From Candidatus Obscuribacteraceae bacterium (GTDB taxonomy: Bacteria > Cyanobacteriota > Vampirovibrionia > Obscuribacterales > Obscuribacteraceae): 64,000 bases of DNA. The stretch's first letter is position 1. Each line of letters opens with the position of its first letter. Under the pieces are notes generated by a model. The model did no database searches and had not been told where the DNA came from. It saw only the letters and a list, made by a program, of their open reading frames with translations. Location of the stretch: the NCBI GenBank assembly GCA_044229845.1, contig JBGASG010000004.1:288001-352000 (forward strand), given 5' to 3'. A program made the translations under genes and the position numbers. Shown piece by piece: positions 2,604 through 20,436 of the stretch.

Positions 2604-3347
2604 TCACGGCTTTTGGAGACTAGTATTAACCGTCGAGAAAAAGGTTCCTCGTTCGATGCGCTTTAAGGCTCTTGGATGAGGCAGGCGATCATAGTCAAGT
2701 ACGCCGATCTCGCGACCGGACAGCTTATCTCGCCATTCCTGCGCTGTGTCCGCGTTCATCAATGAGATTTCCTCACCAACCTCGATATCTGCTGTAGCAC
2801 AGCTGCCTATGAACAAAGCCTTGGACCGAAATTCGGGATCACTGGCATCCAAAATTGCGTTAAACGCCTCCCCGCTACCCATGCACACAATGTACACGAA
2901 ACATGCATCAGGAGCGCCGTCCCTCCGAATGAGTTCCCCCGCTTGTCCACACTCAAAGCAAACGATAAATGTGTGGGATTCACACCCTTTAGAAAAGCGA
3001 ATTACGTGGTGAGGATTGAAGCAAAGAGCCGAATGACTGCCTGTATCAACAGCCAAACGGAAGGCTGATATTAGGACCTTCTTGGTCTCCTCCGTTTTTA
3101 TCTGAGCGTGCGCCAGAATTGGGTAGCCTTGGATGCCGCTGGGGTCAGGCTTTTCCGGATGGGCCGGAATCGCATAAAGATCGACTTGGTCGGCATGGAG
3201 CATAAACTCAATTTCTTCTTCAGTAACATGTTTGGCGATAGTTGCCTTGGGCATTTCCTCCGCTTGAGCGATGGTGGCGATCCCAAATGCAATCAGGATC
3301 GCCAGAAAAGAAGCGAAACGCACAGTAGGAATTAGGATTGAGTGCAT
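2604..3347 (-). CDS. secreted hypothetical protein with CFxPHH...CFEC motif
   Basis: Signal peptide ending AQA; CFNPHHVIRF and IVCFECG. Confidence 0.65.
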   Translation of the reverse strand: MHSILIPTVRFASFLAILIAFGIATIAQAEEMPKATIAKHVTEEEIEFMLHADQVDLYAIPAHPEKPDPSGIQGYPILAHAQIKTEETKKVLISAFRLAVDTGSHSALCFNPHHVIRFSKGCESHTFIVCFECGQAGELIRRDGAPDACFVYIVCMGSGEAFNAILDASDPEFRSKALFIGSCATADIEVGEEISLMNADTAQEWRDKLSGREIGVLDYDRLPHPRALKRIERGTFFSTVNTSLQKP

Positions 3348-3464
3348 CCGCAGAAGTTTGGGTCTCTATGAGGCGAGCATTTTGCCAGTCGGCTTCGGTT
3401 ATGGGAGTATTGTAGTATCAACAGGGCAGGTCGCGCTCTTCGCAGCGCGAATCCACGTGCAACC

Positions 3465-4100
3465 ATGACCCGAACCATGCAAGACAAAAGAAGACTTTTC
3501 TTCGGCAACCGGAAGAAGAATGTCATCGTGACAATCAGCGGCACGATAGTGATCCTCGCGCTCCTGGAATTGTGGATTGCAGCTAAAACCGTCTTGTCCG
3601 CGTTAGGCTTATCCTCAGCACTTCTAGTACTTCTAGCACCGATCGCTTTATTGTGGCGTTATCCGATTGCAATGTTTTTTGTGATGATCGGATATCCGAA
3701 TTTGACATGTAAAGTCAATTTTCTTCTCTTCAATCGCTGCTTCGGAAAACTTCCCGAACCAGGGTTAGCGCTAGGGATTCTAGTCGTTACGGTACCGATT
3801 ATTGTATCGCTTGTGCTTCCATCGACCCAGATACCACTTTTGCAATTGCAGATGCCGCCCTGGCTTGACGGCAGTTTCGTATACGCCTTCGGGTACCGAG
3901 CTGGTCTCGTCTGGCACTGTTGCGTGTGCGCATCTTGCCTGATACTCATGGATGCAGCCGGATTTTTGCTCATTCGAGCTTACTACCAAGAGAGGTTCAG
4001 CTGGTCGACATTTTGCTGGTTCGTTCTGGCAGACGTTCTATGCTCTCCATTGCTAGATTGGATCAGCATATTCTACAGAGTGTGGCCTAATGAACCCTAG
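3465..4100 (+). CDS. multi-pass membrane hypothetical protein (possible immunity protein)
   Basis: About 5 hydrophobic segments; convergent 48-nt overlap with 4053-5255. Confidence 0.55.
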   Translation: MTRTMQDKRRLFFGNRKKNVIVTISGTIVILALLELWIAAKTVLSALGLSSALLVLLAPIALLWRYPIAMFFVMIGYPNLTCKVNFLLFNRCFGKLPEPGLALGILVVTVPIIVSLVLPSTQIPLLQLQMPPWLDGSFVYAFGYRAGLVWHCCVCASCLILMDAAGFLLIRAYYQERFSWSTFCWFVLADVLCSPLLDWISIFYRVWPNEP

Positions 4101-5255
4101 CTGTTTCAGTATGGCGCTATGTTCCCTCTCTGCGACGAATTTACCCGCGGCATTGAAGTGCCCGAGTTCCTTAATCCGACCAGCTGCAACCGCCTGAGCA
4201 TGAGTACTAATATGCATTTCTGGAGAATACATAAGCAATTTGTTTTCGGGTGGAGGCGTTAGGAGGAAGCTTCTGAAGTTTGGATTGAGATTCACTAATT
4301 GGTCAGCTTGGTGAATATCGTCATAGGAAAATTCGGAATAACCCTTTCGGTGCGGGTGTGAGTGGATGATTGCATCGAGTTTATACTGATTCGTTGCCAT
4401 CTGCACCAAATCACTAGCCGTGTGATTCTCACTCTGGTCTGGGGCGGTCTCGGGAGATGTCGTGTACCACAAGCTGCTTGCCGACAGAGGTCCCCCAGAT
4501 TGGCGCCCGAAGGCGACGTGAAACTCGCCCCCTTCTGTGCGCCTGGGATCATTCAGGATCGAGTTACAGCTCTCGAGAATGCCCTGCCCCACTGAAGGCA
4601 CCGGATGAATCTCTCCATAGGATTTGCCAAACCAACCTTTTGTTACCTCTGCCGCAGGTACTCCATGCTTTTTGGTTAAGTCCCAAATGATTCCATTTAG
4701 AAAATCCGTAGGTCTCTCATCCGGTGCCGGCTTAACGTCAGCGGCATCAGATTTTTTGTCAGGAGATTTTTTGTCAGAGCTCGGGTTCAAGGCTATCAGG
4801 TCGATATCTTGTGCTCCATTGAGTTTAGTGGGCTGGGAAAAGCCCATTAGTTCTTTTGCTTTACGCATCATGTAGTCAATCGAAAAAACGCTCTGGAGGC
4901 GCTCGCGTTCCTCCGCCGTCGGGGCGTCCTTCGTGGCTGCTTGCAATCCAATTAGAAACGACAGCCGCGGGCGGTAGGAATTCTCCATACCGTGTTCGCC
5001 GCTTGCTGTGTAGATGCGCCCCTTTTCTTTATCTTCGATGGCAAACTCTGATACCGCCTGCCCTTGCTTCGAAACCGCGGAAAGGAATTGATCATTACCG
5101 CCCGAAAATGTTTTGAACTTCGGTTCGTAAGGCGCGGCTTGCGGATCGTCTGTGATGGCGTCCTTCGCTATGTGTCCGCTGAGAAGAATCGTTTCCTTCG
5201 GGTGGTCGTCAAATTTATCGCCACCGCTCCCGCTCTCCTTGCCTTTTCCGACCAT
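4053..5255 (-). CDS. putative polymorphic effector: conserved N-terminal domain plus JAB/MPN (DUF4329-like) C-terminal domain
   Basis: N-terminus shared with the gene at 14129; C-terminus EGGE...IIHSHP...FSYDD...FLLTP...LLMYSP. Confidence 0.7.
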   Translation of the reverse strand: MVGKGKESGSGGDKFDDHPKETILLSGHIAKDAITDDPQAAPYEPKFKTFSGGNDQFLSAVSKQGQAVSEFAIEDKEKGRIYTASGEHGMENSYRPRLSFLIGLQAATKDAPTAEERERLQSVFSIDYMMRKAKELMGFSQPTKLNGAQDIDLIALNPSSDKKSPDKKSDAADVKPAPDERPTDFLNGIIWDLTKKHGVPAAEVTKGWFGKSYGEIHPVPSVGQGILESCNSILNDPRRTEGGEFHVAFGRQSGGPLSASSLWYTTSPETAPDQSENHTASDLVQMATNQYKLDAIIHSHPHRKGYSEFSYDDIHQADQLVNLNPNFRSFLLTPPPENKLLMYSPEMHISTHAQAVAAGRIKELGHFNAAGKFVAEREHSAILKQLGFIRPHSVEYADPI

Positions 5256-5444
5256 ACCGCACCACCGACTGAGCTATCGTTCAGGTTATATACCCAAGGA
5301 GTGCAATCCTGGTGCTTCTTGCCCCTCAGAGTAGACCCTTCGCAGTCCAGTCGACTTTAGCATCCGGTCGCTTGTGAGTTACATACCTCTGCGTTCGTTC
5401 TGTCTTCAACGTGGAATAAATCCGAAGCCAACGGATTTGCACAC

Positions 5445-7619
5445 ATGCCCGAAGACCATACAGTGCAGCGCGACGAACAGCTCCAGTCACCGACCCAACT
5501 GCGGCGGGGCACGGTGTTGGACGGTAAATATGAGATTACCGATTACCTCGGCTCCGGTGGCATGGGCGCGGTGTACAAAGCCCGGCAGACCGACTTCGAC
5601 CGGTCTGTCGCCATCAAAACTCTGCATGCTCGGTTCACTTCTGATGTATCAGCCGTTAAGCGGTTTCAACGCGAAGCGCGCATCATCTCGCAATTGACGC
5701 ACAAGAACATCCTCGCCGTTTACTCATTTGGCGGACACCAGGATTTCATCTATCTGGCGATGGAGTATGTGCAGGGTACTTCGCTGGGACGTCTGCTGGC
5801 GGAGAAGGGCAAGATGACGCCGGAGCAGGCGCTCCCGATGCTCTTGCAAGTCTGCGACGGCATGGAACACGCCCACAAACACGAAGTGCTGCATCGCGAT
5901 TTGAAACCGGACAACGTGATGATCGTGACCTCTGGGCTTGCGGGTTCAGTTGTGAAGGTCGTGGACTTCGGGTTGGCAAAGTTGATGGATGGTCCCGATG
6001 GTCAGCGCCTGACGCGCACGGGCGAGGTCGTGGGAGATCCGCGCTACATGAGCCCGGAGCAGTGCGGGGGAGAAACTCTCGACGTGCGGTCAGATATCTA
6101 TTCCTTCGGTTGCTTGATGTACGAAGCATTGACTGGTAAGTGGCCGTTCGATGCCGATGATCCCGTAGCGATTCTGCATAAGCATATCGAACAAGATCCG
6201 GAACCATTCGCAAAACGGCTCGGGCTGCCGCCCGCCATTGAGGCAATAACTTTTACGGCAATGGCAAAAAATGCCAAAGACAGATACGAATCTTTTGGTG
6301 CAGTTGCGAAAGCACTACAGGATTTCGCCAGCAACCCGAATGCAAAGGTGGCTGCACCAGCAAGACGTGCCCGCGGGAAGAAACCTTCGAAGCTCGCTTT
6401 GGCAGGGATTGCCGTCGCTGTCGGTGTCGTCGCTGTCGGCGGCGCAGCCGCGCTTTTCGTAAGTCCATCGGATTGGTCGATTCTCCCGACCAAGTTGCAG
6501 TATCAAGCAGCAAGTTCACCCGGAGAAAAACTCAAAACCGGCATGCAACTAGGCGAGTACTACCTCGCGCACAACGCGCTTGACGAGGCGGCTGGCTACT
6601 TCACGGCAGTCAGAAAGCTGGCGGAGGCTGCCAATGACCGCGAAGCGAGTTTCTACAGCACCGCTGGGCTCAGTCAAGTTTTCGCCAAACAAGGGCGAGA
6701 GTCCGATGCGAGCAGTGCTGCAGTGTCATCCATCGCAACCGGACTCAATATGATCAATGCAGGGAACACAGACCGCAAGGTGTGTTACACAATCTGCACA
6801 GTGCTGCCGCTGTACAGCAGATCAGCGCCAGGCGACATGGTTGCCGCGGCTCACGAAGTCGCGAACGTTTACATAACACACAAACAACTGTCCAACGCGC
6901 GCACCGTGCTGGAGCAAGTGGCACCGATCGGAAACGGCGCCGCGAGGACATCAACGCTGATATTGCTCGGCGACCTCAGTCTGCGCATGAATGACAGAGC
7001 GAAGGCACAGCAATACTTCGGCGCGGCCGCCGCTATGGCGGAAAGTGCACAACCTAAGGCTGTGATACTGCAGATGGTCGGCGCCAGAGCTATGGCAGGC
7101 GGCGATGGGGAATTGGCAGCTGACTATTTCAAACAGGCATTGCAACTTACACCGAAAGCGATAGGTGCCCCTTTCGTTATGCTGCAACTACAGGTCGCGG
7201 ATTGCTACGCATCGACACAGAATTTGCGAGCAGCCAAACAGGCATACTCCGATGCGCTTGGGTACGCGCGCACTTTACCCAATGCGGAACCTCTGGTTAT
7301 CCGCAGCCTGCACGGGCTTGGTCAGGTGGAATACCACCTGGCGGATCACGCAGGCGCGGAAAACGCGTTCAAAGAAGAAGTAAGTGTTATCACTCACAGT
7401 CCAGCGCCAGATGTCGCTCAGCTAGCCAATGCAACATGCATGTTGGGCGACTCGCTAAGTAGGCAGAAAAAGTACTGCGAGGCGGCATCTCAATTCGAGC
7501 GGACCATGCAAATCATCACCGCCACTCCAAATCAGAACTCCTTAAATGAGCTGCTAGCTACGGCTACTGAAAAACATCGCACAAATGTCATCGATTGTGC
7601 CAACAGCAAGGGCAAGTAA
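5445..7619 (+). CDS. Hanks-type Ser/Thr kinase, transmembrane segment, TPR-like C-terminus
   Basis: LGSGGMGAVY, VAIK, HRDLKPDN, DFG, YMSPEQ, DIYSFG; hydrophobic segment followed by helical repeats. Confidence 0.95.
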   Translation: MPEDHTVQRDEQLQSPTQLRRGTVLDGKYEITDYLGSGGMGAVYKARQTDFDRSVAIKTLHARFTSDVSAVKRFQREARIISQLTHKNILAVYSFGGHQDFIYLAMEYVQGTSLGRLLAEKGKMTPEQALPMLLQVCDGMEHAHKHEVLHRDLKPDNVMIVTSGLAGSVVKVVDFGLAKLMDGPDGQRLTRTGEVVGDPRYMSPEQCGGETLDVRSDIYSFGCLMYEALTGKWPFDADDPVAILHKHIEQDPEPFAKRLGLPPAIEAITFTAMAKNAKDRYESFGAVAKALQDFASNPNAKVAAPARRARGKKPSKLALAGIAVAVGVVAVGGAAALFVSPSDWSILPTKLQYQAASSPGEKLKTGMQLGEYYLAHNALDEAAGYFTAVRKLAEAANDREASFYSTAGLSQVFAKQGRESDASSAAVSSIATGLNMINAGNTDRKVCYTICTVLPLYSRSAPGDMVAAAHEVANVYITHKQLSNARTVLEQVAPIGNGAARTSTLILLGDLSLRMNDRAKAQQYFGAAAAMAESAQPKAVILQMVGARAMAGGDGELAADYFKQALQLTPKAIGAPFVMLQLQVADCYASTQNLRAAKQAYSDALGYARTLPNAEPLVIRSLHGLGQVEYHLADHAGAENAFKEEVSVITHSPAPDVAQLANATCMLGDSLSRQKKYCEAASQFERTMQIITATPNQNSLNELLATATEKHRTNVIDCANSKGK

Positions 7620-7627
7620 CGGTCAGT

Positions 7628-8050
7628 TCACAGCGCTCGTTGTAAAAAGTATCTCTGATGAGAACTTGGGAAATCGTCCAGGGTTCCAAATATCGTATAA
7701 CCCAACTTCTCGTAAAACGGCAGCGCTTGAAAGCTGAAAGTGTCGAGCCATGCATGGTGGCAGCCGCGACGCCGAGCTTCATCATGAGCTGCTTCCAACA
7801 GCTTGGTTCCCCAACCAGATTTGCGGACACTTTCATCGACAGCCAAGTTTTCGATGAATAGCCAACCAAAGTACGTATGCCCCTCCAGTCCGCCGAGTAC
7901 CGTTCCCTGCGAATCCTTGAGAAGCAGTATCAGTTTCCTGAAGCTGGAGACCCCGACCTCGCTCTTGTTGTAAGCACGCAAGATAGCGAAGAACGATTCC
8001 ATCTCCTCTTTCGGAGGGGTTTCTTCGAAATGCTGTTCGAGAACTATCAC
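7628..8050 (-). CDS. GNAT acetyltransferase
   Basis: LAVDESVRKSGWGTKLL, LDTFSFQALPFYEKLGY. Confidence 0.9.
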   Translation of the reverse strand: MIVLEQHFEETPPKEEMESFFAILRAYNKSEVGVSSFRKLILLLKDSQGTVLGGLEGHTYFGWLFIENLAVDESVRKSGWGTKLLEAAHDEARRRGCHHAWLDTFSFQALPFYEKLGYTIFGTLDDFPSSHQRYFLQRAL

Positions 8051-9108
8051 TGCTCACGAGCGCCGCGCATGCTACGCAGCGGTGCAGTGATTTTCCAGGA
8101 TGTGCTATTCCGCATATCGCTCAACTGAGCCTCCAGCAATTCCCGCTCGCCCCGAGTGCGACACCTCAAATCATCGAACTGAGCAAGAACATCCGTCAAA
8201 TACCTCAGCGTTCGATACGCGAGTTCCTTATAGCCCTGCGCTAACATCCGAGCGTCGGCATAGACAGGCATTTCCAGAATCTGCGGGAGCGTTATGCCTT
8301 CGTCTTTGATCAAGTGATTTAGCTCCAGAGCGATGGTTTCGCACGCCCGCGCATAGATTTGCTCTGATGATTCGCCAAAGTCCTCGAGAAATCCTCGATA
8401 CTTCTTACCGAGCGCGAGAATGTCTAGCGCAAACAGCAATTGACTGAGGTTTTTCGACGTGCTGCTTTCCTCGTGCCGCCGAAAGCTGCACAGGACCTCG
8501 TCGATGTAGAAGTACTGAGCATCCATCAATATCCGAAACCAGTATTCGATATCTCCGTAGTGGAAAAACTGCGTGTCAAAACCACTCCCGGTTCGGTCTG
8601 CACGAAACATCACTGTACTCGGCTCGCCGACCCAGTTCGTCCATCGAAGCAGGTTGTACAGCACCACTTCGCGCCCCGAAATTTTCCGGCTACTCGGGAA
8701 CGGATGAAGCGTCTTCGTGACCGAGCCGTTTTTGTCTATCCATTGCTTTGCAGTGCTGATCAAAGTAACATCCGGGCTTTGCTCAAAGCGCGCGAGCATT
8801 CGCTCGAGCATTGAGGGCTCCAACTTGTCATCTTGCGCAAATGGTTTGATAAAAGCCCCTGTCGCACTCTCCAGACAGCGATTGTAATTAGCAAACAATC
8901 CCTTATTGGAATCATTGACCCAAGCGTTAATGCGGCTATCTTGCTTCGCATATCGGCTGATCACAGTCCAGCTATCGTCATCCGAACAGTCATCACCAAT
9001 CAAGAGTTCCCAATCCGGTGTGGATTGTGCCAACACGCTCTCGATTGCCTCTGGCAAGTAGCGAGAACCGTTGTAGACAGGCAGAAGCACAGACACACGG
9101 GGAGCCAC
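8047..9108 (-). CDS. GT2 glycosyltransferase
   Basis: VSVLLPVYN, DDCSDD, QDD; C-terminal coiled coil ending STSWKITAPLR. Confidence 0.92.
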   Translation of the reverse strand: MAPRVSVLLPVYNGSRYLPEAIESVLAQSTPDWELLIGDDCSDDDSWTVISRYAKQDSRINAWVNDSNKGLFANYNRCLESATGAFIKPFAQDDKLEPSMLERMLARFEQSPDVTLISTAKQWIDKNGSVTKTLHPFPSSRKISGREVVLYNLLRWTNWVGEPSTVMFRADRTGSGFDTQFFHYGDIEYWFRILMDAQYFYIDEVLCSFRRHEESSTSKNLSQLLFALDILALGKKYRGFLEDFGESSEQIYARACETIALELNHLIKDEGITLPQILEMPVYADARMLAQGYKELAYRTLRYLTDVLAQFDDLRCRTRGERELLEAQLSDMRNSTSWKITAPLRSMRGAREQ

Positions 9109-9111
9109 GGT

Positions 9112-10644
9112 TCACCTCGTGTTTGTACTGAGAGCTAAAATCTCGTCGTCGTGCTGCTTCTGTTTCACATCGTTTTCCAACTTCGCCACGAGCTTTTGAA
9201 GGCCCGCAGGAGTTTTTCCGCGAAACACCAAGCGACAGCAGGACAACGCTGCCTTTGCAACAGAAAGCTTCGGACGCTTCTTAATCAGCCGCCACCAGTG
9301 CCAGATGCGGAAGCGGTAGGACTTCAGATACAGCAGGTCGTAAATCATGCGGTCGTACGCAAAAAGAAATGCCTTCGCGTCGAACATCGCATCGCTCGGT
9401 TCCTTCAAATAGAGCCGATGCGGGTGCCGCGCCACAAATCGTTGGCACGCGAGTTCGTATATCTCAGCCGTTTGGCGCGCGATTTCCGTGCGTTGAAACT
9501 TATCGAGAGTCCGCTGCCGCGCGGCTTTCCCCATGGCGATGCGTTCGGCATCGTTCTCCAGCAAACGCAAAATTGCATCGGCAAGTGCATCACCGTCGCG
9601 GGGCGGGACAATAATCCCCGACTCGCCGTCCGTCACATATTCACGCGTCCCGCCCGCCGAGGTGCCCACCACGGGGCGCCCGCAGGACATCGCTTCCAGG
9701 CAGGTATAAGGCGAGTTGTCGTACACCGACGGCACCACACAAATGTCGGCTGAGCGGTAGTGCGCAGGCAGTTCCTTCAATGGGATGCGAGGAATGAACA
9801 GCAAATTGCCGGCACAACCGCGGTCGGCGATTTGCTTATCCAGTTCAGCCTTGACCGACTTCTGTCCCTTGCCGTTATTGGTGTCATCGCCGATGATGAC
9901 GAAACGGACATTGGGAAACTTCGCCACCACTTTCGGCACTGCATCGATCAGATATCTGATGCCCTTGCGTTCTTCGAGGCGACCGACAAACAGCACGGTC
10001 AGCCGACCATCGGGCTTGATAGCCTTGTCCCCGTCGGGAGAAAACTCTTGCGGGTCAATCGGATTACGGATAATCCGTATTTCGTTGCGCGGATAATGCA
10101 AATCACTCGCCACGAAGTCAGCCAGATCCTCGCTCGGAGAAGTAATCGCGTCGGAGGAAACCATCGCCACCCGCTCAAGCATGGCGACAAACTGGTGATC
10201 GAAGGTCGGCGTGACGTTGTGCAGACCTTCGGCAATGAACTTGGAATGCGGTGTATAGAGCCGCACCACCAGCGGTGCCGCTTTAGTGATGGCGGGCACC
10301 AACCCCTCGGCAAGCAGTTCGGGCGTGTCGATTACATCGAAGGGACGTTCATTGTGCAGTTCGAAAAACTTTTCCCAGAGCGCCGTCGTCGTTTGCAAAA
10401 CATAACGACTGTAGGGCATACAAAAGGCAACACAGCCCAGATTTCCGGGGATATCGGTTGGGACGACCCGGTGCACCCGGATTCCGTCTTGAACGACGGT
10501 TTTCGCCGTATCCCTGGCCAGCGCTACGACTTCGACTTCATGCCCGATCTCCTTCAGCCCATTTGCCAAATGGTTGCTGAAGGTGGCAATGCCGCCGAAA
10601 CCGGTCTCTGGCGGATATTCACGCGAGATGATGCAGACGCGCAT
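9112..10644 (-). CDS. GT4 glycosyltransferase
   Basis: EYPP..GGI, FVGRLEERKG, PSVYDNSPYTCLEAMSCG. Confidence 0.92.
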   Translation of the reverse strand: MRVCIISREYPPETGFGGIATFSNHLANGLKEIGHEVEVVALARDTAKTVVQDGIRVHRVVPTDIPGNLGCVAFCMPYSRYVLQTTTALWEKFFELHNERPFDVIDTPELLAEGLVPAITKAAPLVVRLYTPHSKFIAEGLHNVTPTFDHQFVAMLERVAMVSSDAITSPSEDLADFVASDLHYPRNEIRIIRNPIDPQEFSPDGDKAIKPDGRLTVLFVGRLEERKGIRYLIDAVPKVVAKFPNVRFVIIGDDTNNGKGQKSVKAELDKQIADRGCAGNLLFIPRIPLKELPAHYRSADICVVPSVYDNSPYTCLEAMSCGRPVVGTSAGGTREYVTDGESGIIVPPRDGDALADAILRLLENDAERIAMGKAARQRTLDKFQRTEIARQTAEIYELACQRFVARHPHRLYLKEPSDAMFDAKAFLFAYDRMIYDLLYLKSYRFRIWHWWRLIKKRPKLSVAKAALSCCRLVFRGKTPAGLQKLVAKLENDVKQKQHDDEILALSTNTR

Positions 10645-10770
10645 GGGCTAGATGTTAGCACCAACCCCTTTACGTCTCATGAGATCCAGCATAACTCGAT
10701 GCGGTCAGGGAGCCCCGGCGCTTGGAAACCAAAGCCGAAGAACCGCAAATATGAGCGCTTTCCAACAGAG

Positions 10771-12297
10771 TCAACTTTGCTCCATTCGATCCAGGAGGTC
10801 TTTGGAGTCATCAACGTCGACTCCGGGCAGAGCCCCACCCCTTGTGCGACAAACAGGTAGCCACTCAGGTTGATCGACACCGAAGGGCTGTAACTTGTCG
10901 AGTTCCTTATGCGGAAGTCCTTCGACCGTGACCGCTGGTGCCAGCTCTGTGACCCGTCCGGCTCTCGTATCGACGGTGCGCAATTTCGTCGGGAATTCGT
11001 CTTTTTCGGGAGCATCCTCGAATGCGCTCTCCGGCAATAGACCGAGATCCTGCACCCACATCGCAGTGCGCGCCAGCGAAACTTTCACATGGTAGCTGCC
11101 ACCATCCGTCGCCCGCTTCAGAAGCGCGGTCATAACCCCGCTCGCAGCCAGATAGCCTGTTAGGAAATCGTTGAGATAGAAGACCGGCGAAAACGTCGGC
11201 GCGCCGCCTCGCCCTTCCGTTGCCGCAAAACCTGTAGCGACCTGCGCGTTTTGATCAAAGCCGGGGCGCGCCTTCCATGGTCCTTCGAATCCATACGCAT
11301 TCACGGACAAACATATAATCCCCGGGTGCTCTTTCGCTAGTTCCGCAGGCGAGAGCCCGAACCTTTCCGCCACGCTAGGTCTGTAGGAGCAGGCAAACAC
11401 GTCCGCCTCACTGAGCAGTCGTTTCATTTTTTGTCTGTCTTCTTCCAGAGTGAGATAGAGGTATGCCGAGCGTTTCCCCATATTCACCAGAAGATTTTGC
11501 GAAATCGTATCTCTGTGATAAGGAGAGCTGATGTGCATTACATCAGCTCCGTACTGAGCGAGACTGCGCATACTTCTAGGTCCGGCCAGCACGTGCGTGA
11601 AATCCACGACCTTGATGCCGTCGAGAGGAAAGCTACATCCCGGCTTCAATCCGTGCGGTTGCCCATCGCCGATTTTTTCAATTTCAATCACCGGCTTCGT
11701 CAGCAGCGCTTGTCCCTGCGGGTGTCGCCGCCATTCATCGGCTTCGTATGCAATGCAGGCAGGCAGACCAAGAGCCGACAGCTTCTCCTGAAGATCTTCG
11801 GCATCGTACTTCGCAATCTCTCTGCCAATCGACTCGCGATTGTTGCCGCAGTCGAAGAAGTTGAGATAGCCGCGTTCCAGTTTCGTATACGGAGGTCCGG
11901 CTTCAGTCATGATGTAGCGACCATCCGCGCAACGAAAGATGCCGTTGGTTGGCACCAGCTCTGCGCCGACCGTCAGCGCATAACCGTTGTGCCAGAGGAA
12001 GTGCGTCGAGTGCAGTGCGTGAATTGCATCATGAACGTCTATGTCGGCTACAAGATTCTCATTCGCGGTGCCTGTGCGATGTTTCCATATCGCTGCTGCT
12101 GCAATAACTTCGAGCAACAACGTGTATGCCGTCGCCTCGGACAGATGATGTGGAGACCTCAAGATCGGATCGGCACCGGTCAGGCGCGCGTCACCGTTGT
12201 AGGCGGCATCCAGCCCCAGTCCGCGCATCAAGTTGGATAGGTCCGGCAACTTCTGACTGCGGAGCGTTCTTATCACCTGGGTGACTGGTGTTGTCAT
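10771..12297 (-). CDS. family III CoA transferase (CaiB/BaiF), long form
   Basis: LDGIKVVDFTHVLAGP, GKRS, RPGFDQ, YLNDF; GAGGAG RBS before ATG 12297. Confidence 0.9.
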   Translation of the reverse strand: MTTPVTQVIRTLRSQKLPDLSNLMRGLGLDAAYNGDARLTGADPILRSPHHLSEATAYTLLLEVIAAAAIWKHRTGTANENLVADIDVHDAIHALHSTHFLWHNGYALTVGAELVPTNGIFRCADGRYIMTEAGPPYTKLERGYLNFFDCGNNRESIGREIAKYDAEDLQEKLSALGLPACIAYEADEWRRHPQGQALLTKPVIEIEKIGDGQPHGLKPGCSFPLDGIKVVDFTHVLAGPRSMRSLAQYGADVMHISSPYHRDTISQNLLVNMGKRSAYLYLTLEEDRQKMKRLLSEADVFACSYRPSVAERFGLSPAELAKEHPGIICLSVNAYGFEGPWKARPGFDQNAQVATGFAATEGRGGAPTFSPVFYLNDFLTGYLAASGVMTALLKRATDGGSYHVKVSLARTAMWVQDLGLLPESAFEDAPEKDEFPTKLRTVDTRAGRVTELAPAVTVEGLPHKELDKLQPFGVDQPEWLPVCRTRGGALPGVDVDDSKDLLDRMEQS

Positions 12298-12333
12298 TTC
12301 ATCAATCTCCTCGTCTATGCGACGCAGCATGCA

Positions 12334-13092
12334 TCAACGATACATGCTGCGCCAGAAAAGTTCGGTACAGATCCCAAGAACCACAATTACTATAGCCACC
12401 ACAACCCATTCCGACTTCGATAGATTTTCTCTCTTCGCCTCTCCTGCTGCACTAACCATGCGCAACGCCTGAAAGGACAACAGCATTCCGCAAGTCTGAA
12501 AAATCCGAAGCGCGAAGGAAAACGTGACGGGCGAGACTGCGGACTCATGAGCCGTCGAAAGTACGAGAATGTTGGACAGAAGGGACAATCCAAGCGGCAC
12601 AACAAATGGCGCAGTCAAGCCAGTCCAGACCGTCGTCACAAAGAGGGACCGCTTCCCGTTACGATCAAACAACCCGCGGGCCAACCAACAAGAAGCGGGC
12701 AAACCGCCAATCAGCGGACAGAGCAGCGCAGATAGAAGCAGCATTGCGCGGGGGTGCACGCCCATTCCGTTATTCTTAAGTTCACTTAGCTCGAGCAAAC
12801 AATACGACACGGCTAGTCCACTCAGAAAGATTGTCACAAGCGCCAAGTTATCCGTGGTGCCGATCGCGTGCTCCGAGTGATTCTTCAGGGCTCTCGCAAC
12901 GCGACGACACCAATACAGCCACGGAAGGGAACAGGCTAGTTGGGCAAGTATGTACAAGCGGACGCCATTTGGAATAGCTGCGAAGGAGTGCAATCCAAGC
13001 GCGCCTACAATGAGTGGAACCAGACACAAAAACTGGTCCCAAGGCACCCGATGGATGTGCTTCCTATTTGCGAGTCTCTGGCTTTCTGACAC
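12334..13092 (-). CDS. multi-pass membrane hypothetical protein (candidate immunity protein)
   Basis: About 7 hydrophobic segments; start overlaps the stop of the upstream effector-like gene by 29 nt. Confidence 0.6.
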   Translation of the reverse strand: MSESQRLANRKHIHRVPWDQFLCLVPLIVGALGLHSFAAIPNGVRLYILAQLACSLPWLYWCRRVARALKNHSEHAIGTTDNLALVTIFLSGLAVSYCLLELSELKNNGMGVHPRAMLLLSALLCPLIGGLPASCWLARGLFDRNGKRSLFVTTVWTGLTAPFVVPLGLSLLSNILVLSTAHESAVSPVTFSFALRIFQTCGMLLSFQALRMVSAAGEAKRENLSKSEWVVVAIVIVVLGICTELFWRSMYR

Positions 13093-14129
13093 CCGACCTC
13101 GCCATTTCCTCGACCTTTGACCACTCTTCTTTTGTGATCGGTTGTTTCATCGTATAGATTACTTCGCCACCACCGGGAGCGATTAGCTGATAGCCTGTCG
13201 GAAGATACTCAGGGCTGCCATCGCGCTGTTTGACGGAGTGAAACACCTGCCCATTTTCTCTCGCAACTTTGTCTGGTGCTGCCAAAACGTACATCCCTGT
13301 CTTGTCAGCCATCATCGCGGCCAGACTCTTCCCTCCTTCTGGAACCGCTCCGCCGTCACACACAACTAATATCATCAACGGAGGTGCGTCGGGATGACTC
13401 TCCCGATGGGCTTTCAACGAAATATCGATTTTCTTCATAGCTTCATCTGGAGAGATTTTCGCTCCTGCCCACCACGGGATGCCACCAAACTCTTTTCAGA
13501 ATCGCACCAGGAGTGCCATGTGCAGAGACGGCAAAGATTTCGGGCGGAGCGGTAGTCTTCGGAAGTCCCATATGCAGGTCCAGCGGACCAATTGCAATGC
13601 CAATATCTCCTGCGAAATCGCAATCGGCGTTACGGACTGATCCCTCCGGCGGTCCAATCTCCACGGCTGGGTGCTTGATGCGTTCACTTGCCTCATCCTT
13701 GTTCTGAACCTCGCCAGGCAACATGAGGGTAGAAAAACGCTTCGAAACCGCAGACTGAGCCGATTCGAGCAGTCCGCTCGCCTTTCTCACAATGTAGTCA
13801 ATCGAAAAGATGGCCCTAATTTCGGCCTCTTGCTCTGGCGTTTCAGCCACCGAAAGTGCGTTTTTCAACCCTTCCATGAAAGAGTGTCGAGGCACATGGC
13901 TCTCACCACTAGCTCTATATTCTTTGCCGGCGGCCTTGTCTTCCAAAACAAATTCGGCACCTGAGCGCGCAGCGGACAGCGCCTGATCGCCAACACCCGA
14001 GAACGTCTTAAACTTGGGCTCATATCCGGCCGCCTGCTGCTCCTCCGATATGTTCTCCTCTGCGGCTTTACAGCCTGATGTCCCGTCGGGTTTCTCCGAG
14101 TTCTTATGAAAGTTTCTCTCTAGCGACAT
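13064..14129 (-). pseudogene. putative polymorphic effector (shared N-terminal domain plus His/Cys caspase/C80-like domain), frameshifted near 13495
   Basis: Likely start ATG 14129. Removing one A from CTGAAAAGAG joins SAHGTPGAILK to EFGGIPWWAGAKISPDEAMKKI...LVVCDGG..SLAAMMADKTGMYVLAAP. Confidence 0.65.
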
Positions 14130-14295: not shown

Positions 14296-14577
14296 ATGTC
14301 CAAACGATACTCTATAGCCGAGGCGCGAGATAATCTTGCAGCCATCCTTTACGAACTCGAACACGAAAAGAGCGTCGAGATCACTAGGCGAGGGCAGCCT
14401 GTTGCAGTTTTGGTATCGAAGGCGGCCTATGATCGAATGAATTCCCCGGGTCAAGGTTTCTGGAACGCATACGAAGCCTTCAAACGAAGGGTGAATCTTA
14501 GTGAACTAAACATCGATCCCGACGAGGTTTGGGGTAATGTACGCGACCAGTCACAGGGGCGCAGAATCGACCTTTGA
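14296..14577 (+). CDS. Phd/YefM-family antitoxin
   Basis: YSIAEARDNLA, VEITRRGQPVAVLVS; overlaps the toxin gene. Confidence 0.9.
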   Translation: MSKRYSIAEARDNLAAILYELEHEKSVEITRRGQPVAVLVSKAAYDRMNSPGQGFWNAYEAFKRRVNLSELNIDPDEVWGNVRDQSQGRRIDL

Positions 14578-14981
14578 ACAGATTTCTGCTCGATACGAAT
14601 GTCGTTTCAGAGCCGCTCAGACCGAAGCCGAACCGCATTCTAATTGCCCGTCTGAGAGAGCACGAAACGGAATTAGCGCTACCCTCGATCGTCTGGCATG
14701 AACTCCTATTTGGCTGCGCCTCTCTGCCCGTCGGTGTGAAACGCACTGCTATAGAAGATTATCTGAATTCGATACCCTGGATCATTTTGCCTTATGATTC
14801 CGAGGCCGCAGAATGGCACGCACAAGAGCGCGCGCGTCTTCAGCGGCTCGGAAAGACGCCCACCTTCCCTGATGGGCAGATAGCCGCTATTGCGGTCACT
14901 CAAAAGCTCACGCTAGTCACACTCAACCGCCGCGATTTCCAGAACTTCAAAGGAGTGAATCTTGCCGACTGGACTCGCTAG
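14574..14981 (+). CDS. vapC: VapC PIN-domain toxin
   Basis: LLDTNVVSE, DGQIAAIA, LVTLNRRDF. Confidence 0.92.
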   Translation: MNRFLLDTNVVSEPLRPKPNRILIARLREHETELALPSIVWHELLFGCASLPVGVKRTAIEDYLNSIPWIILPYDSEAAEWHAQERARLQRLGKTPTFPDGQIAAIAVTQKLTLVTLNRRDFQNFKGVNLADWTR

Positions 14982-15005: not shown

Positions 15006-16541
15006 ATGAGCAAATTCAGCGAACTATCCGCCGCCAAGAAAGTGTTGCTCGTTGTGGGCGGGCTTCTCCTGCTCAACATAATTGGCTTCACGGCGCTGTT
15101 CTTTCTGCTCGGCGGTCCGCACCTGGCGCAAACCATATCCAGCATCTTCACATACAAACCAGGACCTGACGAGGACTACAGCCCCGAAGGGCGCATCAAG
15201 TCAAACTCTAAGAAAATCGCAGAGAATCCACGCGATGCCAATGCTTACGAGCAACGCGCCCAGGCATACGAAAGCCTCGATAACTACCAGTCTGCGTTGA
15301 AGGACATGAACTCCGCAATATCACTCAAAGATGGTGAAGCGGACTGGTACAAAGATCGCGCCGACATCCACGAACGGCTTGGACACTTGGACGCGGCCAT
15401 CGAAGATTACGCGCGCGCTATAAAACTAAATCCGAGCGACGACAGCTTATACGTGGATCGCGCTCATTGCTACAGCAAACTGAACAAACAAAAAGAAGCT
15501 TTCGCGGACTATGCAAAAGGGCTGGAAGTGAGCAAAAGCAAGAGCTGGATCTACTTCAACCGCGCCAGATTGTATGAGGATCTCGGTGACGACAAAAATG
15601 CGATCATCGACTACAACAAGGCGATCGATACGGCCGACAAGTCTCAGGGCGATCCGCAATCAGTGCGCAACCTGGTTGAATTGCATGATCGACTCGGCGA
15701 GACGGAGCAAGCTATAAAAGATTGCGCCCGCTGGGTGTCCATGAAACCATCCAGCTATGACGCGTACGAGATGCGCGGCGATCTCTACGAGCAATCCGGT
15801 CAGCCTGACAAAGCGAAAGCGGACTACGAACAGGCAGAGAAACTGCTCACCGAGGAGATCGAAGAAGATCACAACGCCTCCGTCCTCGACAATCGCGCTG
15901 AAATTCGGAAGAAGCTGGGTCGCATGGAAGACGCGAAAAAAGACTGGCTGCGAGCGATCGAGCGATACAAAAACAAAGAAGTCCATTTCACGGGCGACTT
16001 ATCAGAATACGACTCGATTGCCGAACTCTACGACAAGATTGGCGACACGGCATCTGCCAAGGAATGGCGGCAAAAGCATGTCGATCAGCTGTCCGAAGAG
16101 ATTAGGAAAAATCCGGAGAATGCGGATAAGTGGCACGACCGCGGCGTCGTCTATTCCGATATGAATGAGCAAGACAAAGCGCTGTCCGACTTTTCGAAGG
16201 CACTAGCATTATCGCCCTACGACGGCGACTACCACCACCACCGTGCAGTGTGCTACATCAAGCAAAAGAACTATCCACAGGCGCTCGCAGAAGCACTGAG
16301 AGCAGTCGAGTACGCCAGGGGCACCGGGAGCGATTTCCACGAAACGCTTGCCCACGCGCTTGAACTGACAGGAAGACATCAGGCTGCCATCATCGCAGCC
16401 AATCAAGCTCTAGCACGTTTTAAATCAGACGGACGCGCGCTCTATTGGCGCGCGCAAGCGGAACAAAATCTGGGACAAACCGAAGCGAGCAAGCGTGATT
16501 TCGCCCGCGCCAAGCGTTTCGGATGTGTCTCCCCGGACTGA
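15006..16541 (+). CDS. membrane-anchored TPR protein
   Basis: N-terminal transmembrane segment; repeated TPR consensus (AIEDYARAIKLNP, ALSDFSKALALSP). Confidence 0.9.
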   Translation: MSKFSELSAAKKVLLVVGGLLLLNIIGFTALFFLLGGPHLAQTISSIFTYKPGPDEDYSPEGRIKSNSKKIAENPRDANAYEQRAQAYESLDNYQSALKDMNSAISLKDGEADWYKDRADIHERLGHLDAAIEDYARAIKLNPSDDSLYVDRAHCYSKLNKQKEAFADYAKGLEVSKSKSWIYFNRARLYEDLGDDKNAIIDYNKAIDTADKSQGDPQSVRNLVELHDRLGETEQAIKDCARWVSMKPSSYDAYEMRGDLYEQSGQPDKAKADYEQAEKLLTEEIEEDHNASVLDNRAEIRKKLGRMEDAKKDWLRAIERYKNKEVHFTGDLSEYDSIAELYDKIGDTASAKEWRQKHVDQLSEEIRKNPENADKWHDRGVVYSDMNEQDKALSDFSKALALSPYDGDYHHHRAVCYIKQKNYPQALAEALRAVEYARGTGSDFHETLAHALELTGRHQAAIIAANQALARFKSDGRALYWRAQAEQNLGQTEASKRDFARAKRFGCVSPD

Positions 16542-16561: not shown

Positions 16562-17542
16562 CTATCGCGTCCGACCCGACTCGCGCACTGAATGCGATAC
16601 CATAGGCCGCTCAGCGACAGACCCGGATTTCGATTGACCCGCTTGGGCACCGGAAGAAACAGCTGCAGCAGCCAGCGTCGGCGTGGAACCATTGCGCAGC
16701 TTGTACGCAGCAATCCGAACATAAGCCAGAGACATCAACCCGAAGGCTACGAATGGATCCAGCCACATGCGGTCTTCGCGATAGTGCTTGCGCCAGAAAC
16801 GAATCAATCCGCGGTGCGAAGAAAGGATCATCTTCGCCTTCACTTGTTTAATCGATTGACCGTAGTGATGCACGACTTTAGCGTCGGGCGTAAACCAGAT
16901 ACTCATGCCGGCTTTCTTGATGCGGTAGCACCAATCTACTTCCTCGAACAACATGAAGTAACCTTCATCGAGGGTGCCGACTTCTTCGAGCAGCGTTTTG
17001 CGAATCATCAGGCAGGCGCCTTCCGGCTGGTCGACTTCGCGGGCGTGGTCGTGCTCGAAGTCGAGCATCTTATATGAACCGAATCGCGGGTCTTTCGGAA
17101 ATAGTTTGCTGAGCCCGAGCAATTCATAGAACATGGCGGTGAATGTCGGGAATTGGCGGCAGGAGCGTTGAATAGATCCGTCCGAATTCAGCAACTGCGG
17201 TGCCACGACTGCGATGCTGGGGTTTTTGTCCAGCACCTTCATAAGCGTGCGAATCGCGCCGGGTTTCACTTCCGTGTCGGGATTGAGAAGCAACACCTTT
17301 TCACCGCGAGCGATTTCAAAAACCTGATTGTTAGCCGCCGCAAAACCGCGATTGTCTTCATTCGCAATCAGACGAACCCATGGATAATCGCGCGCCACCA
17401 TGTCGGCTGAACCGTCCGCGGACGCGTTGTCGACCACATAGACTTCCGCCGCCAGCCCATAAAGCTCATGGCGCAGGCTCTCCAGACAAGCAGCCAGGAG
17501 CGCTTGTGTGTTCCAACTAACGATGACGACGGTCAACTGCAT
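16562..17542 (-). CDS. GT2 glycosyltransferase (WbbL/rhamnosyltransferase-like)
   Basis: VIVSWN, VVDNASADGS, LLLNPD, GACLM, FEEVDWC; next to rfb genes. Confidence 0.9.
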   Translation of the reverse strand: MQLTVVIVSWNTQALLAACLESLRHELYGLAAEVYVVDNASADGSADMVARDYPWVRLIANEDNRGFAAANNQVFEIARGEKVLLLNPDTEVKPGAIRTLMKVLDKNPSIAVVAPQLLNSDGSIQRSCRQFPTFTAMFYELLGLSKLFPKDPRFGSYKMLDFEHDHAREVDQPEGACLMIRKTLLEEVGTLDEGYFMLFEEVDWCYRIKKAGMSIWFTPDAKVVHHYGQSIKQVKAKMILSSHRGLIRFWRKHYREDRMWLDPFVAFGLMSLAYVRIAAYKLRNGSTPTLAAAAVSSGAQAGQSKSGSVAERPMVSHSVRESGRTR

Positions 17543-17575
17543 GGGCGTTTTGCGTGGTATCTGAAGAATCGGAGA

Positions 17576-18202
17576 CTAATTGCCACCACGTCCGGTGAGG
17601 ACCGTGCTGACTGTAAGCGCGATTATCCGCCAGTCGAGCCAGTAATTCCAGTTGTCGCAATACCACTTATCGAAACTAACTTTTTCATCATCCGCCAGTT
17701 CGTCTCGACCATTAACTTGCGCCCATCCGGTAATGCCCGGTGGAAACCGCAGTACGCCTGCTTCCTGCCGTTTCTCATTGAGAGAAACCTGATTGTGCAA
17801 CGCCGGTCGTGGACCAACGATGGTCATGTCGCCGCGTAATACATTGATCAATTGCGGCAGTTCGTCGATGCTCGTAGCGCGAATGAATTTGCCCAAACGC
17901 GTCACAGGGCTGGGCATTTTGAGCATCTGGTCGGTGGGGATATCCGGCGTATCGCAGCGCATGCTGCGAAACTTATAAATTTCGAAATACTCGCCGAAGC
18001 GACCAAAGCGTTTTTGCTTGAAGATAATCGGCCCAGGTGAATCGATTTTTATCAATGCCGCCGTCACCAGCATGATCGGCGAAAGTGCAACCAGCGCCGA
18101 TCCCGCAAGCACTACGTCCGTCACGCGCTTGCATGTTAAACCGATCTTCGTTTCCGAATTCTTAACTGGCACCGGTGCGAGTTCACTGGAAGTGTTTCTC
18201 AT
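17576..18202 (-). CDS. initiating polyprenyl-phosphate sugar phosphotransferase (bacterial sugar transferase)
   Basis: KRVTD, YKFRSM, SIDELPQLINVLRGDMTIVGPRP, PGITGWAQVNGR. Confidence 0.93.
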   Translation of the reverse strand: MRNTSSELAPVPVKNSETKIGLTCKRVTDVVLAGSALVALSPIMLVTAALIKIDSPGPIIFKQKRFGRFGEYFEIYKFRSMRCDTPDIPTDQMLKMPSPVTRLGKFIRATSIDELPQLINVLRGDMTIVGPRPALHNQVSLNEKRQEAGVLRFPPGITGWAQVNGRDELADDEKVSFDKWYCDNWNYWLDWRIIALTVSTVLTGRGGN

Positions 18203-18262
18203 TCTACGTTGTCACGCCTTAGGTAGAATCAGCAGCCGTCACCTAAACAGGTACTTTAGCAG

Positions 18263-19339
18263 ATGAAAGGACTAATTCTAAGCGGTGGCAAGGGTACGCG
18301 GATGCGTCCAATCACGCACACCGCGGCAAAACAGCTCTTGCCTGTGGCGAACAAACCTATTTTGTTCTATGCCGTCGAAGCCATTAAAGAAGCCGGCATC
18401 AACGAAATCGGGATCATCATCAGTCCGGAAACCGGCAATGATGTGCGTGCCACCGTCGGTAATGGCGAGCGCTGGGGCATCAAAATTGAGTACATCGTGC
18501 AGGACGAACCGAAAGGTCTGGCGCACGCTGTAGTCACCGCCCGCGACTTCCTCAAAGACTCGCCTTTCGTAATGTACCTGGGCGACAACCTTATTAAGAA
18601 TGGAGTGGCTCCTCTGGTTCGTCGGTTCGATGAATCTAAAAAGGATGCGCTGATTCTTCTTAAAGAAGTACCGAATCCTGCATCGTTCGGCGTGGCTCAA
18701 TTGAGCGACGACGGCAGCCGCATCATCTGCCTGGAAGAGAAGCCCGCCAAGCCCAAATCGAATTTGGCGCTGGTCGGTGTTTATCTCTTCAATCCACATA
18801 TTCACACCGCCATCGATCAAATCAAACCAAGCAAACGCGGCGAACTGGAAATCACCGACGCCATTCAAAAGATGATCGACCTCAGCTATCACGTCGACAG
18901 CCACGTGCTGAAGACCTGGTGGCTCGACACTGGAAAGAAAGACGACATGCTGGAAGCCAACCGCGTCGTGCTCGACGAAATGGAAGACTTCTTGATGCAC
19001 GGTCAACTGGAAGGCAACACGATCATCTCCGGTCGTGTGCACGTCGGCGTCAACTCCGTACTGCGCAACTGCACGGTGCGCGGACCGGCCGTCATCGGCG
19101 ACAACTGCGTTCTGGAGAACAGCTATGTCGGACCGTTCACATCGATCGGCGACGGCGCCAAAGTCAGCCATGCGGAAATCGAACACAGCATCTTGCGTGA
19201 AAACTGCCAGATGCTGGACTTCAATGGACGCATCGAAGATTCACTGATCGGCGTCAATGTCGAACTGACTCGCGGTCACCGCAAACCAATCGCCTACAGA
19301 TTTATGCTCGGCGACGACAGCAAAGTCGAAGTCGTTTAG
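18263..19339 (+). CDS. rfbA: glucose-1-phosphate thymidylyltransferase (long form)
   Basis: LSGGKGTRMRP, KQLLPVANKP, YLGDN, RGELEITD, WLDTG. Confidence 0.95.
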   Translation: MKGLILSGGKGTRMRPITHTAAKQLLPVANKPILFYAVEAIKEAGINEIGIIISPETGNDVRATVGNGERWGIKIEYIVQDEPKGLAHAVVTARDFLKDSPFVMYLGDNLIKNGVAPLVRRFDESKKDALILLKEVPNPASFGVAQLSDDGSRIICLEEKPAKPKSNLALVGVYLFNPHIHTAIDQIKPSKRGELEITDAIQKMIDLSYHVDSHVLKTWWLDTGKKDDMLEANRVVLDEMEDFLMHGQLEGNTIISGRVHVGVNSVLRNCTVRGPAVIGDNCVLENSYVGPFTSIGDGAKVSHAEIEHSILRENCQMLDFNGRIEDSLIGVNVELTRGHRKPIAYRFMLGDDSKVEVV

Positions 19340-19353
19340 GAGGAAACTAGCGC

Positions 19354-20427: not shown

Positions 20428-20436
20428 AGGTAGAAA

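Follow-up and report, generated by a model that had tools for sequence, protein, structure and literature searches.

A putative polymorphic toxin family in Obscuribacterales with a constant N-terminal domain and exchangeable C-terminal tips

The window analysed here is a 64,000-nt stretch (positions 288,001-352,000, forward strand, of contig JBGASG010000004.1, assembly GCA_044229845.1) of a Candidatus Obscuribacteraceae genome, and it carries two minus-strand genes that share an N-terminal domain and differ in their C-terminal tips. Below, G000 denotes the window's genome and G001 its sister genome, and C, L and P denote contigs, loci and proteins, the last from a search of 1.84 billion protein representatives. 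Member 1 (4053-5255, minus strand) is a single intact open reading frame (ORF) encoding a 400-aa protein with a charged leader, the shared domain (4836-5180, minus strand, about 113 profile positions in the domain alignment A1), a linker and a JAB/MPN metallo-enzyme tip (4056-4640, minus strand). The tip matches Prok-JAB with an E value of 0.0068, under the Pfam cut-off. Alignment of 13 JAB tips (A4), labelled DUF4329 or Prok-JAB, revealed invariant E (near 4526 in the window), HxH (4364), S and D residues, the same signature as that of Tox-JAB-2 in PMC3482391.

Member 2 had been called in the first-pass annotation as one ORF at 13064-14129, on a par with that of member 1, and was found to consist of two pieces in different frames, split near 13490. 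The first piece (13443-14129, minus strand, 228 aa) encodes the leader, the second copy of the shared domain (13758-14078, minus strand, placed by alignment A1 and pairwise comparison) and the start of a caspase-like tip with its His-Gly (13526). The second (13064-13495, minus strand, other frame) encodes the remaining tip with the conserved Cys (13360) and is 43% identical to P0009, an intact homolog which both pieces match. The same break is present in G001, and contigs from two of two DNA runs not flagged as possible sources (X14 and X15, habitats biofilm and activated-sludge metagenomes) span it without difference. Member 2 is therefore a real pseudogene, and a frameshift introduced by assembly was ruled out. 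Member 1 is the probable live toxin of the window and member 2 a dead one. Two RNA runs (X16 and X17) gave short pieces on member 1 and elsewhere, as contigs that are incapable of showing transcription.

Over 91 columns the two copies of the domain share 49% identity (tblastn E 1e-19), and synonymous differences were found in 8 of the 10 codons of the decapeptide YEPKFKTFSG, in agreement with the first-pass annotation, which had placed the domain at 4857-5129 and 13779-14024. The homologous region is real, and its conserved part starts about 17 residues ahead of YEP. The tips, JAB-like versus His/Cys, are unrelated and neither member has a signal peptide, as was also first noted there. Across the family the domain is about 110 residues long and always at the N-terminus, heading proteins of 240 to 2319 aa; in a partly redundant set of 98 scored members it ended by residue 260 in all 98, with a signal-like stretch in one. 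It consists of short conserved motifs, with invariant F, S, G, Y and K residues, and variable inserts between them, and was modelled by AF2 as a disordered charged leader followed by a beta-hairpin and a helical hairpin (pLDDT 69). Distant members keep mainly its second half: 20 of them scored 14.6-47.7 bits with a profile built from near copies only (reversed decoys, at most 9.7 bits), and the weakest member used, L105, was aligned to the near profile with 87% probability (E 3.7e-6).

The genome G000 has eight copies of the domain at five to six sites, and G001 has 12 and one broken copy. A narrow profile of 14 near copies matched 28 of the 107 genomes of the order, a wider profile matched 30 of the 104 genomes of the family (9 of 37 genera), and among 300 genomes taken from elsewhere in the phylum the domain profile matched none. 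The search of protein representatives found 57 clusters, two of which (P0042 and P0045) were left out as unrelated before counting; named relatives are Candidatus Obscuribacterales or Melainabacteria, and one match bears an unchecked Cryomorphaceae label. The domain had no match in Pfam, NCBIfam, PADLOC, PDB sequences or the ESM Atlas, PDB sequence searches with A3 and with the coupling-like ATPase A5 (see below) returned 0 matches, and a metagenome locus scan with A1 gave 79 pattern matches with 0 confirmed. Fold searching with the domain model, as the first-pass annotation had proposed, returned only generic helical hairpins (best Z 5.7), a missing match which is not proof of a new fold. That annotation could not place the N-terminus among RHS, LXG, WXG100, PAAR, MuF and CdiA, and the Pfam and NCBIfam scans of members likewise found none of these, nor MafB or PVC/DUF4157 N-terminal trafficking domains; no housekeeping family matched either.

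Clustering the last 170 residues of 71 members gave 24 clusters, 12 of them with several members, some singletons being fragments. Besides the JAB tips, the family carries a caspase-like/C80 tip with an invariant Cys, a CDI-type REase-like tip (PF21111, E 3e-7), a weak CHAP match and, in giants of 2300 aa, annexin repeats (PF00191). For the caspase-like tip, the four best structure matches that span the tip support a clan CD fold at modest Z: three are named clan CD peptidase structures, TcdA CPD (Z 6.7, rmsd 3.4, 135 aligned), RtxA CPD (Z 5.6) and CHAT (Z 5.5), and one is a type VI secretion system (T6SS) effector complex (Z 5.8). From motifs read by eye, we take further tips to be papain/C39-like, transglutaminase-like, kinase-like, RelA/SpoT-like, HopA1-like, lysozyme-like or of an HExxH type. 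A DUF6883 tip (E 4e-15) is followed by a DUF4926 gene, and these two are described as a BECR toxin-immunity pair (bioRxiv 10.64898/2026.08.28.747851). Some single-copy members of other genera look constant and not polymorphic (see below).

Comparison of G000 with G001 revealed that tips are replaced behind a conserved body. Orthologs of the 2300-aa giants are 95-100% identical up to residue 1800 or so and 41-58% identical beyond it. Tandem kinase-fold genes of about 322 aa lie downstream, five in G000 (C8) and three in G001; the first of G001 is 94% identical to the fifth of G000, and the second of G001 is 98% identical to the first of G000. Because these identities are crossed, each genome has a different partner beside its tip and has kept the other's as an orphan. 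At C15, three tandem copies share about 89% DNA identity over their first 270 bp or so and then continue into JAB or caspase-like tips; behind each copy lies a separate gene with four transmembrane (TM) segments. A 7.9-kb cassette in G001 occupies a site that is empty in G000, and G001 has a second replaced segment as well.

A similar replacement can be read at member 1. A relic at 3337-3426 (minus strand), corresponding to the last 30 or so codons of a caspase-like tip, matches the end of P0027 at 60% identity (E 9e-5 in a tblastn search of the whole genome), and it overlaps a gene at 2604-3347 (minus strand) for a 247-aa protein with a signal-peptide-like start, the putative orphan partner of the displaced tip. 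Homologs of this protein were found in 7 of 103 other genomes of the family; the best two flanked homologs (in G014 and G082) abut caspase-like tips, and the other five loci have none within the 1.5-kb flanks. The relic and the orphan partner together indicate that the site of member 1 formerly held a caspase-like tip, and this pairing of a caspase-like tip with a signal-peptide partner is repeated in two other genera. Orphan tips and polyimmunity arrays are thus represented by the window relic, the five tandem kinase-fold genes at C8 and a broken second copy in L020.

In the window, each member overlaps a multi-pass membrane gene, as the first-pass annotation had stated; both ORFs have five TM segments, and they are the candidate partner or immunity genes. 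That of member 2 (12334-13092, minus strand) is co-oriented and overlaps the end of the gene; that of member 1 (3465-4100, plus strand) is convergent and overlaps the JAB stop. The gene next to the tip was envelope-targeted in all 14 short JAB or caspase cassettes examined, a set which includes ortholog pairs: directly a 3-5-TM ORF in 11, a TM-TPR gene with a 3-TM ORF behind it in two, and a single-TM protein in one. Partner ORFs had pN/pS ratios of 0.16-0.39 in 3 of 3 informative ortholog pairs, which indicates purifying selection. Convergent partners whose stop abuts or overlaps the toxin stop were also seen at L090, L093, L097, L101, L106, L107 and L162. Degenerate Ser/Thr kinases of about 322 aa (with HGDLKPEH and DPG) stand in the immunity position at G000:C8:656259-661132 (L022), L019, L099:11651-12721 and G000:C14:21031-22032, and one relative lies near a member with a HopA1-like tip. 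Immunity of these kinase-fold partners by phosphorylation or as decoys is possible.

Taken together, a lineage-specific constant N-terminus, swapped toxin-like tips and linked partners bear out the first-pass proposal, which also withstood the refuting conditions set there, and the genes quite probably form a polymorphic antibacterial toxin family of the Obscuribacterales directed mainly against kin. At the level of sequence, the family consists of a constant N-terminal domain of about 110 residues, lacking a signal peptide, fused to many exchangeable enzymatic tips; recombination behind the domain replaces the tips, each new tip bringing its own partner, with old partners and relics persisting as orphans. 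The domain may serve as a recognition or trafficking tag for export, after which the tip would act in a neighbouring kin cell and the partner would neutralise it. JAB and caspase-like tips are most likely peptidases that cut targets in the envelope or on its periplasmic side, since all their partners are membrane, TM-TPR or signal-peptide proteins. Nuclease, RNase and kinase-like tips would act in the cytoplasm, their partners being small or kinase-fold soluble proteins. Lipoprotein immunity is listed in PMC3482391 for Tox-JAB-1, for which nuclease activity is proposed there. Whether toxin JABs are nucleases or peptidases is disputed, and partners that face the periplasm open the question to direct testing.

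Several observations weigh against this interpretation. His-Gly is present in only about 7 of 11 caspase-like tips. The four structure matches of this tip given above all fall below the caution line of Z 8, and Foldseek with the P0009 model found nothing at E 0.001 and only weak nitrilase rows. In genera g16 and g45, the tips of single-copy members are constant (for one g45 member, 78-96% identity across nine relatives), and the fetched loci show no small partner gene in the same orientation. The partner ORF of member 1 lies on the opposite strand and a homolog search with it returned only itself; one JAB-tip partner in G001 is similar to that of a caspase-like tip (E 1.7e-6) and is not tip-specific; and the partners are mostly unrelated to one another. 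The same tips and bodies were also found behind other N-termini, and these other leaders may be further tags.

Among proteins with such other leaders, papain-like or annexin-like bodies follow other disordered N-termini at G000 C1:959714, C8:79235, C3:42095, C3:45866, C1:447790 and C1:778774, and at L101:1883-7867. The large ones, each with a gene of about 180-260 aa downstream and one (1994 aa) with PGDYG and Zeta-toxin domains, are probably more effectors.

Export was left unassigned in the first-pass annotation. A machine resembling a type IV secretion system (T4SS) can now be named as a candidate route. A VirB4/TraC-like ATPase came to light in a P-loop survey (PF19044, E 9e-22; NCBIfam VirB4-like, E 5e-58, under the cut-off). 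The T4SS-like locus (G000:C17:20254-35079 with C6:277566-285843; L122, L154 and L155), chromosomal and order-wide, comprises this VirB4-like ATPase, two TrbL/VirB6-like membrane proteins (Atlas 0.92), PrgI-like and TrbI-like proteins, two VirB8-like proteins, a lipoprotein and two TPR proteins. Elsewhere in G000, two VirD4-like coupling ATPases (C18:238264 and 242661) lie beside a HerA-like ATPase and giant proteins; this coupling cluster (G000:C18:219081-247888, L123) is directly upstream of giants of 1345 aa (LysM) and 3443 aa, near a ribosomal protein operon, an arrangement kept in G031 (L158). In the T4SS-like set, VirB4-, VirB6-, PrgI-, TrbI- and VirD4-like components were recognised and others were not. 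The locus is syntenic in three genera, with the VirB6-like pair missing from it in G031. The VirB4-like gene was found in 106 of the 107 genomes of the order, mostly with 82-90% identity, and in none of 95 genomes of the class outside the order at E 1e-100; a coupling-like gene is present in 93 of the 107. A second VirB4 paralog stands alone at G000:C13:100296-102914, and solo TrbI-like paralogs at C12, C22 and C19 were ruled out by context as T4SS clusters.

The T4SS-like machine is the only injection-type machine found, and a precedent with a common tag of about 120 residues exists in Xanthomonadales (PMC6536674). Sheath, type III secretion/flagellar, T6SS and WXG100 families (PF04984, PF00771, PF05943 and PF06013) were detected in 0 of 5 genomes, with positive controls detected, divergent forms being able to escape such a search; PF06841 was also absent from all five, but its positive control went undetected too. 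PF03135 had no match in the genomes searched, though the VirB4-like gene is present. Secretins and Tad genes are present in the genome, and the members have no signal peptides. Given the toxin reading, the most likely export route of the family is the chromosomal machine (VirB4, two VirB6, PrgI/VirB3-, VirB8-, VirB10-like and VirD4-like), at somewhat less than an even chance. A more elaborate version, rather unlikely as a whole, would have an order-wide, vertically inherited minimal T4SS that serves for injection, with the domain as an N-terminal substrate tag mirroring XVIPCD, envelope-acting JAB and caspase-like peptidases as kin-killing cargo, kinase-fold immunity to some of them, and kinase-TM-TPR receptors detecting incoming toxins.

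Against such a role, no VirB11 or pilin was identified at the T4SS-like locus, its labels are mostly below curated cut-offs, and none of the fetched domain-bearing loci adjoins T4SS-like genes. The machine (106/107) is far more widespread than the domain (28/107), so their co-occurrence is no discriminator, and the machine could serve DNA uptake or transfer instead. The toxin genes lie apart from the machine, and the connection between the two is a proposal. Complex prediction with the coupling-like ATPase (A5) and the domain (A6) gave a score of 0.00, the partner fold being uncertain, and speaks neither for nor against the route. The relaxase PF03432, the single family searched and as such not decisive, was found 0 times in G000 and G031 and was present in the other three of five genomes.

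Delivery might also need no injection machine. Colicin and pyocin bacteriocins have no signal peptide, a disordered leader, a C-terminal killing domain and an adjacent immunity gene, and the members, if they are toxins, would be alike in all four respects. The domain would then be an uptake module whose leader or motifs bind a kin receptor or Ton/Tol, with release by lysis or in vesicles. The charged low-confidence leader followed by short conserved motifs split by variable inserts, the absence of linked secretion genes in the fetched loci and the lineage restriction, which fits a lineage-specific receptor, are consistent with this explanation. No lysis gene was seen beside the cassettes, however, members match no bacteriocin family in sequence, the range of tips is much wider, and the domain heads proteins as long as 2319 aa, in which annexin repeats and hydrophobic internal helices occur, so that uptake of this kind appears unlikely, if deserving of consideration.

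Receptor-like kinases accompany several cassettes. A Ser/Thr kinase-TM-TPR gene (5445-7619, plus strand) is divergent from member 1 and has an ectodomain of a small subfamily that is enriched at cassettes. Such genes are neighbours of member 1 and of the C15 array and also occur within the two G001-specific segments, compared with only 2.75% of genes next to such a kinase in G000 overall. The linked ectodomains are mutual best matches, forming a subfamily of five linked and two unlinked among the 58 G000 ectodomains plus queries, and at C3 a kinase-less TM-TPR gene directly after a JAB gene is 37% identical to the ectodomain of the window kinase. The kinase-TM-TPR proteins may serve in immunity, sensing or chaperoning. 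This linkage, the common ectodomain subfamily and the HGDLKP loop retained by the downstream kinases would suit a kin-recognition or signalling cassette, in which exported peptidases are ligands or processors for the kinase-TM-TPR receptors and a giant's kinase tip and downstream kinases make a cascade. Tips such as the nuclease, the BECR RNase accompanied by DUF4926, and the lysozyme-like and NlpC/P60-like ones do not act as signals, the retention of orphan partners fits protection, and the C3 TPR gene in the immunity position has no kinase; signalling is accordingly judged improbable.

Other counts and candidates touch these kinases. G000 has 80 Ser/Thr kinases among 4289 called genes, 58 of them with a TM segment and a large ectodomain. 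The window TM-TPR gene at 15006-16541 was considered for the kinase-ectodomain subfamily and showed no similarity.

Effector-associated domains are adaptors in NTP-dependent ternary defence systems, and a small helical domain fused to caspase-like and JAB domains without a signal peptide, in a mobile context, could be a comparable adaptor recruiting them on phage infection; members have no effector-associated domain or PADLOC match and no linked NTPase core in the fetched loci, and their signal-peptide or membrane partners and wall-lytic-like tips point outward, which makes intracellular defence very unlikely. A reading as effectors against eukaryotes, be they protist grazers, hosts or prey, in which JAB would be a deubiquitinase and the kinases would modulate the host, is equally doubtful: JAB, caspase-like, kinase-like, annexin and papain-like domains have eukaryotic targets elsewhere (PMC3482391) and the classmate Vampirovibrio is proposed to attack algae via a T4SS (PMC4451040), but the partner swaps with each tip, which is needless for eukaryote-only targets, the same argument being made for JAB toxins in PMC3482391.

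Read as polymorphic toxins, the Obscuribacterales proteins resemble the RHS, CdiA, LXG, MafB and MuF systems (Zhang et al. 2012, PMC3482391) in their constant N-terminus, variable enzymatic tip and adjacent partner, in their tips (Tox-JAB-2/DUF4329, Tox-Caspase, TGase/papain, REase and BECR) and annexin accessory domain, and in their orphan tips and homogeneous polyimmunity arrays. They differ from the systems described there in an N-terminal domain that matches no known trafficking domain, in dispersed genes with no linked export genes, in partners that frequently converge on the toxin gene and overlap its stop, many being orphan multi-pass membrane or kinase-fold proteins, and in receptor-like kinases that ride in the cassettes. 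With the X-Tfe/X-Tfi effectors of Xanthomonadales (PMC6536674) they share a chromosomal machine of T4SS type, dispersed effectors, one common domain of about 110-120 residues, similar tip classes (lysozyme-like, NlpC/P60 and HExxH), envelope-located immunity (putative in the present family) and frameshifted relics. XVIPCD is C-terminal with immunity upstream, whereas here the domain is N-terminal and the partner downstream; the X-T4SS is a 12-subunit class A system (PMC6536674), and the Obscuribacterales machine is nearer to minimal VirB4/PrgI/TrbL systems. Binding of XVIPCD to the coupling protein is demonstrated in PMC6536674, while for the present domain such binding is only inferred, and Pfam scans of members gave no match to XVIPCD. 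The T4SS of Vampirovibrio chlorellavorus (PMC4451040) is from the same bacterial class and likewise proposed to deliver enzymes, but is of T-type and partly plasmid-borne; the Obscuribacterales VirB4-like protein, unmatched in the class outside its order, also differs in escaping PF03135.

Within the literature searched, the family is the first putative polymorphic toxin system found for non-photosynthetic cyanobacteria. No paper on this domain or on the Obscuribacterales machine was found in that search, and supplementary tables of toxin surveys could already list the domain. With it, an unnamed trafficking domain would join the few by which classes of polymorphic toxins are defined, and further toxin and immunity families could be sought by means of the domain, kinase-fold and multi-pass membrane partners among them. 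The order-wide T4SS-like machine, with its well-conserved VirB4-like protein, suggests an unrecognised contact-dependent lifestyle in these sludge and biofilm organisms.

The first-pass annotation had noted a Phd antitoxin gene near each member; these genes are not part of the system. The Phd/YefM antitoxin at 14296 is paired with a PIN toxin at 14574 (14296-14981, plus strand; PF02604 E 1e-11, PF01850 E 5e-12) and is judged an ordinary VapBC-type pair incidental to the family; the Phd at 2358 is an orphan below the cut-off. Both were rejected as toxin partners.

Some further observations concern the copies and their surroundings. A GGGTATATA box lies about 25-30 bases upstream of the starts of several members (window 5256-5300; copies at C3, C8 and L012) and is likely a -10 promoter element. 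A second JAB member (G000:C3:260318-261798) is frameshifted in G000 and intact in G001 (L016), and the C16 giant and the C34 JAB copy of G001 are truncated or deleted with intact counterparts in G000; cassette copies appear to turn over rapidly. The distant members L092, L093, L095, L102, L103 and L107 adjoin relaxase/MobC, integrase-like, transposase and RadC-like genes (relaxase and NikA labelled by Pfam, the remainder read by eye), and the cassettes therefore travel on mobile elements. Over 16 kb, G001:C9 (L011) is 99.95% identical to the window, compared with 89-98% at other G000/G001 loci, which reflects either recent exchange of the region or shared binning. The window cassettes lie inside a surface-polysaccharide region with glycosyltransferase, sugar transferase and rml genes, read by eye, at 8047-10644 and 16562-21300, and the C15 and C34 cassettes likewise adjoin glycosyl- and acyltransferase genes.

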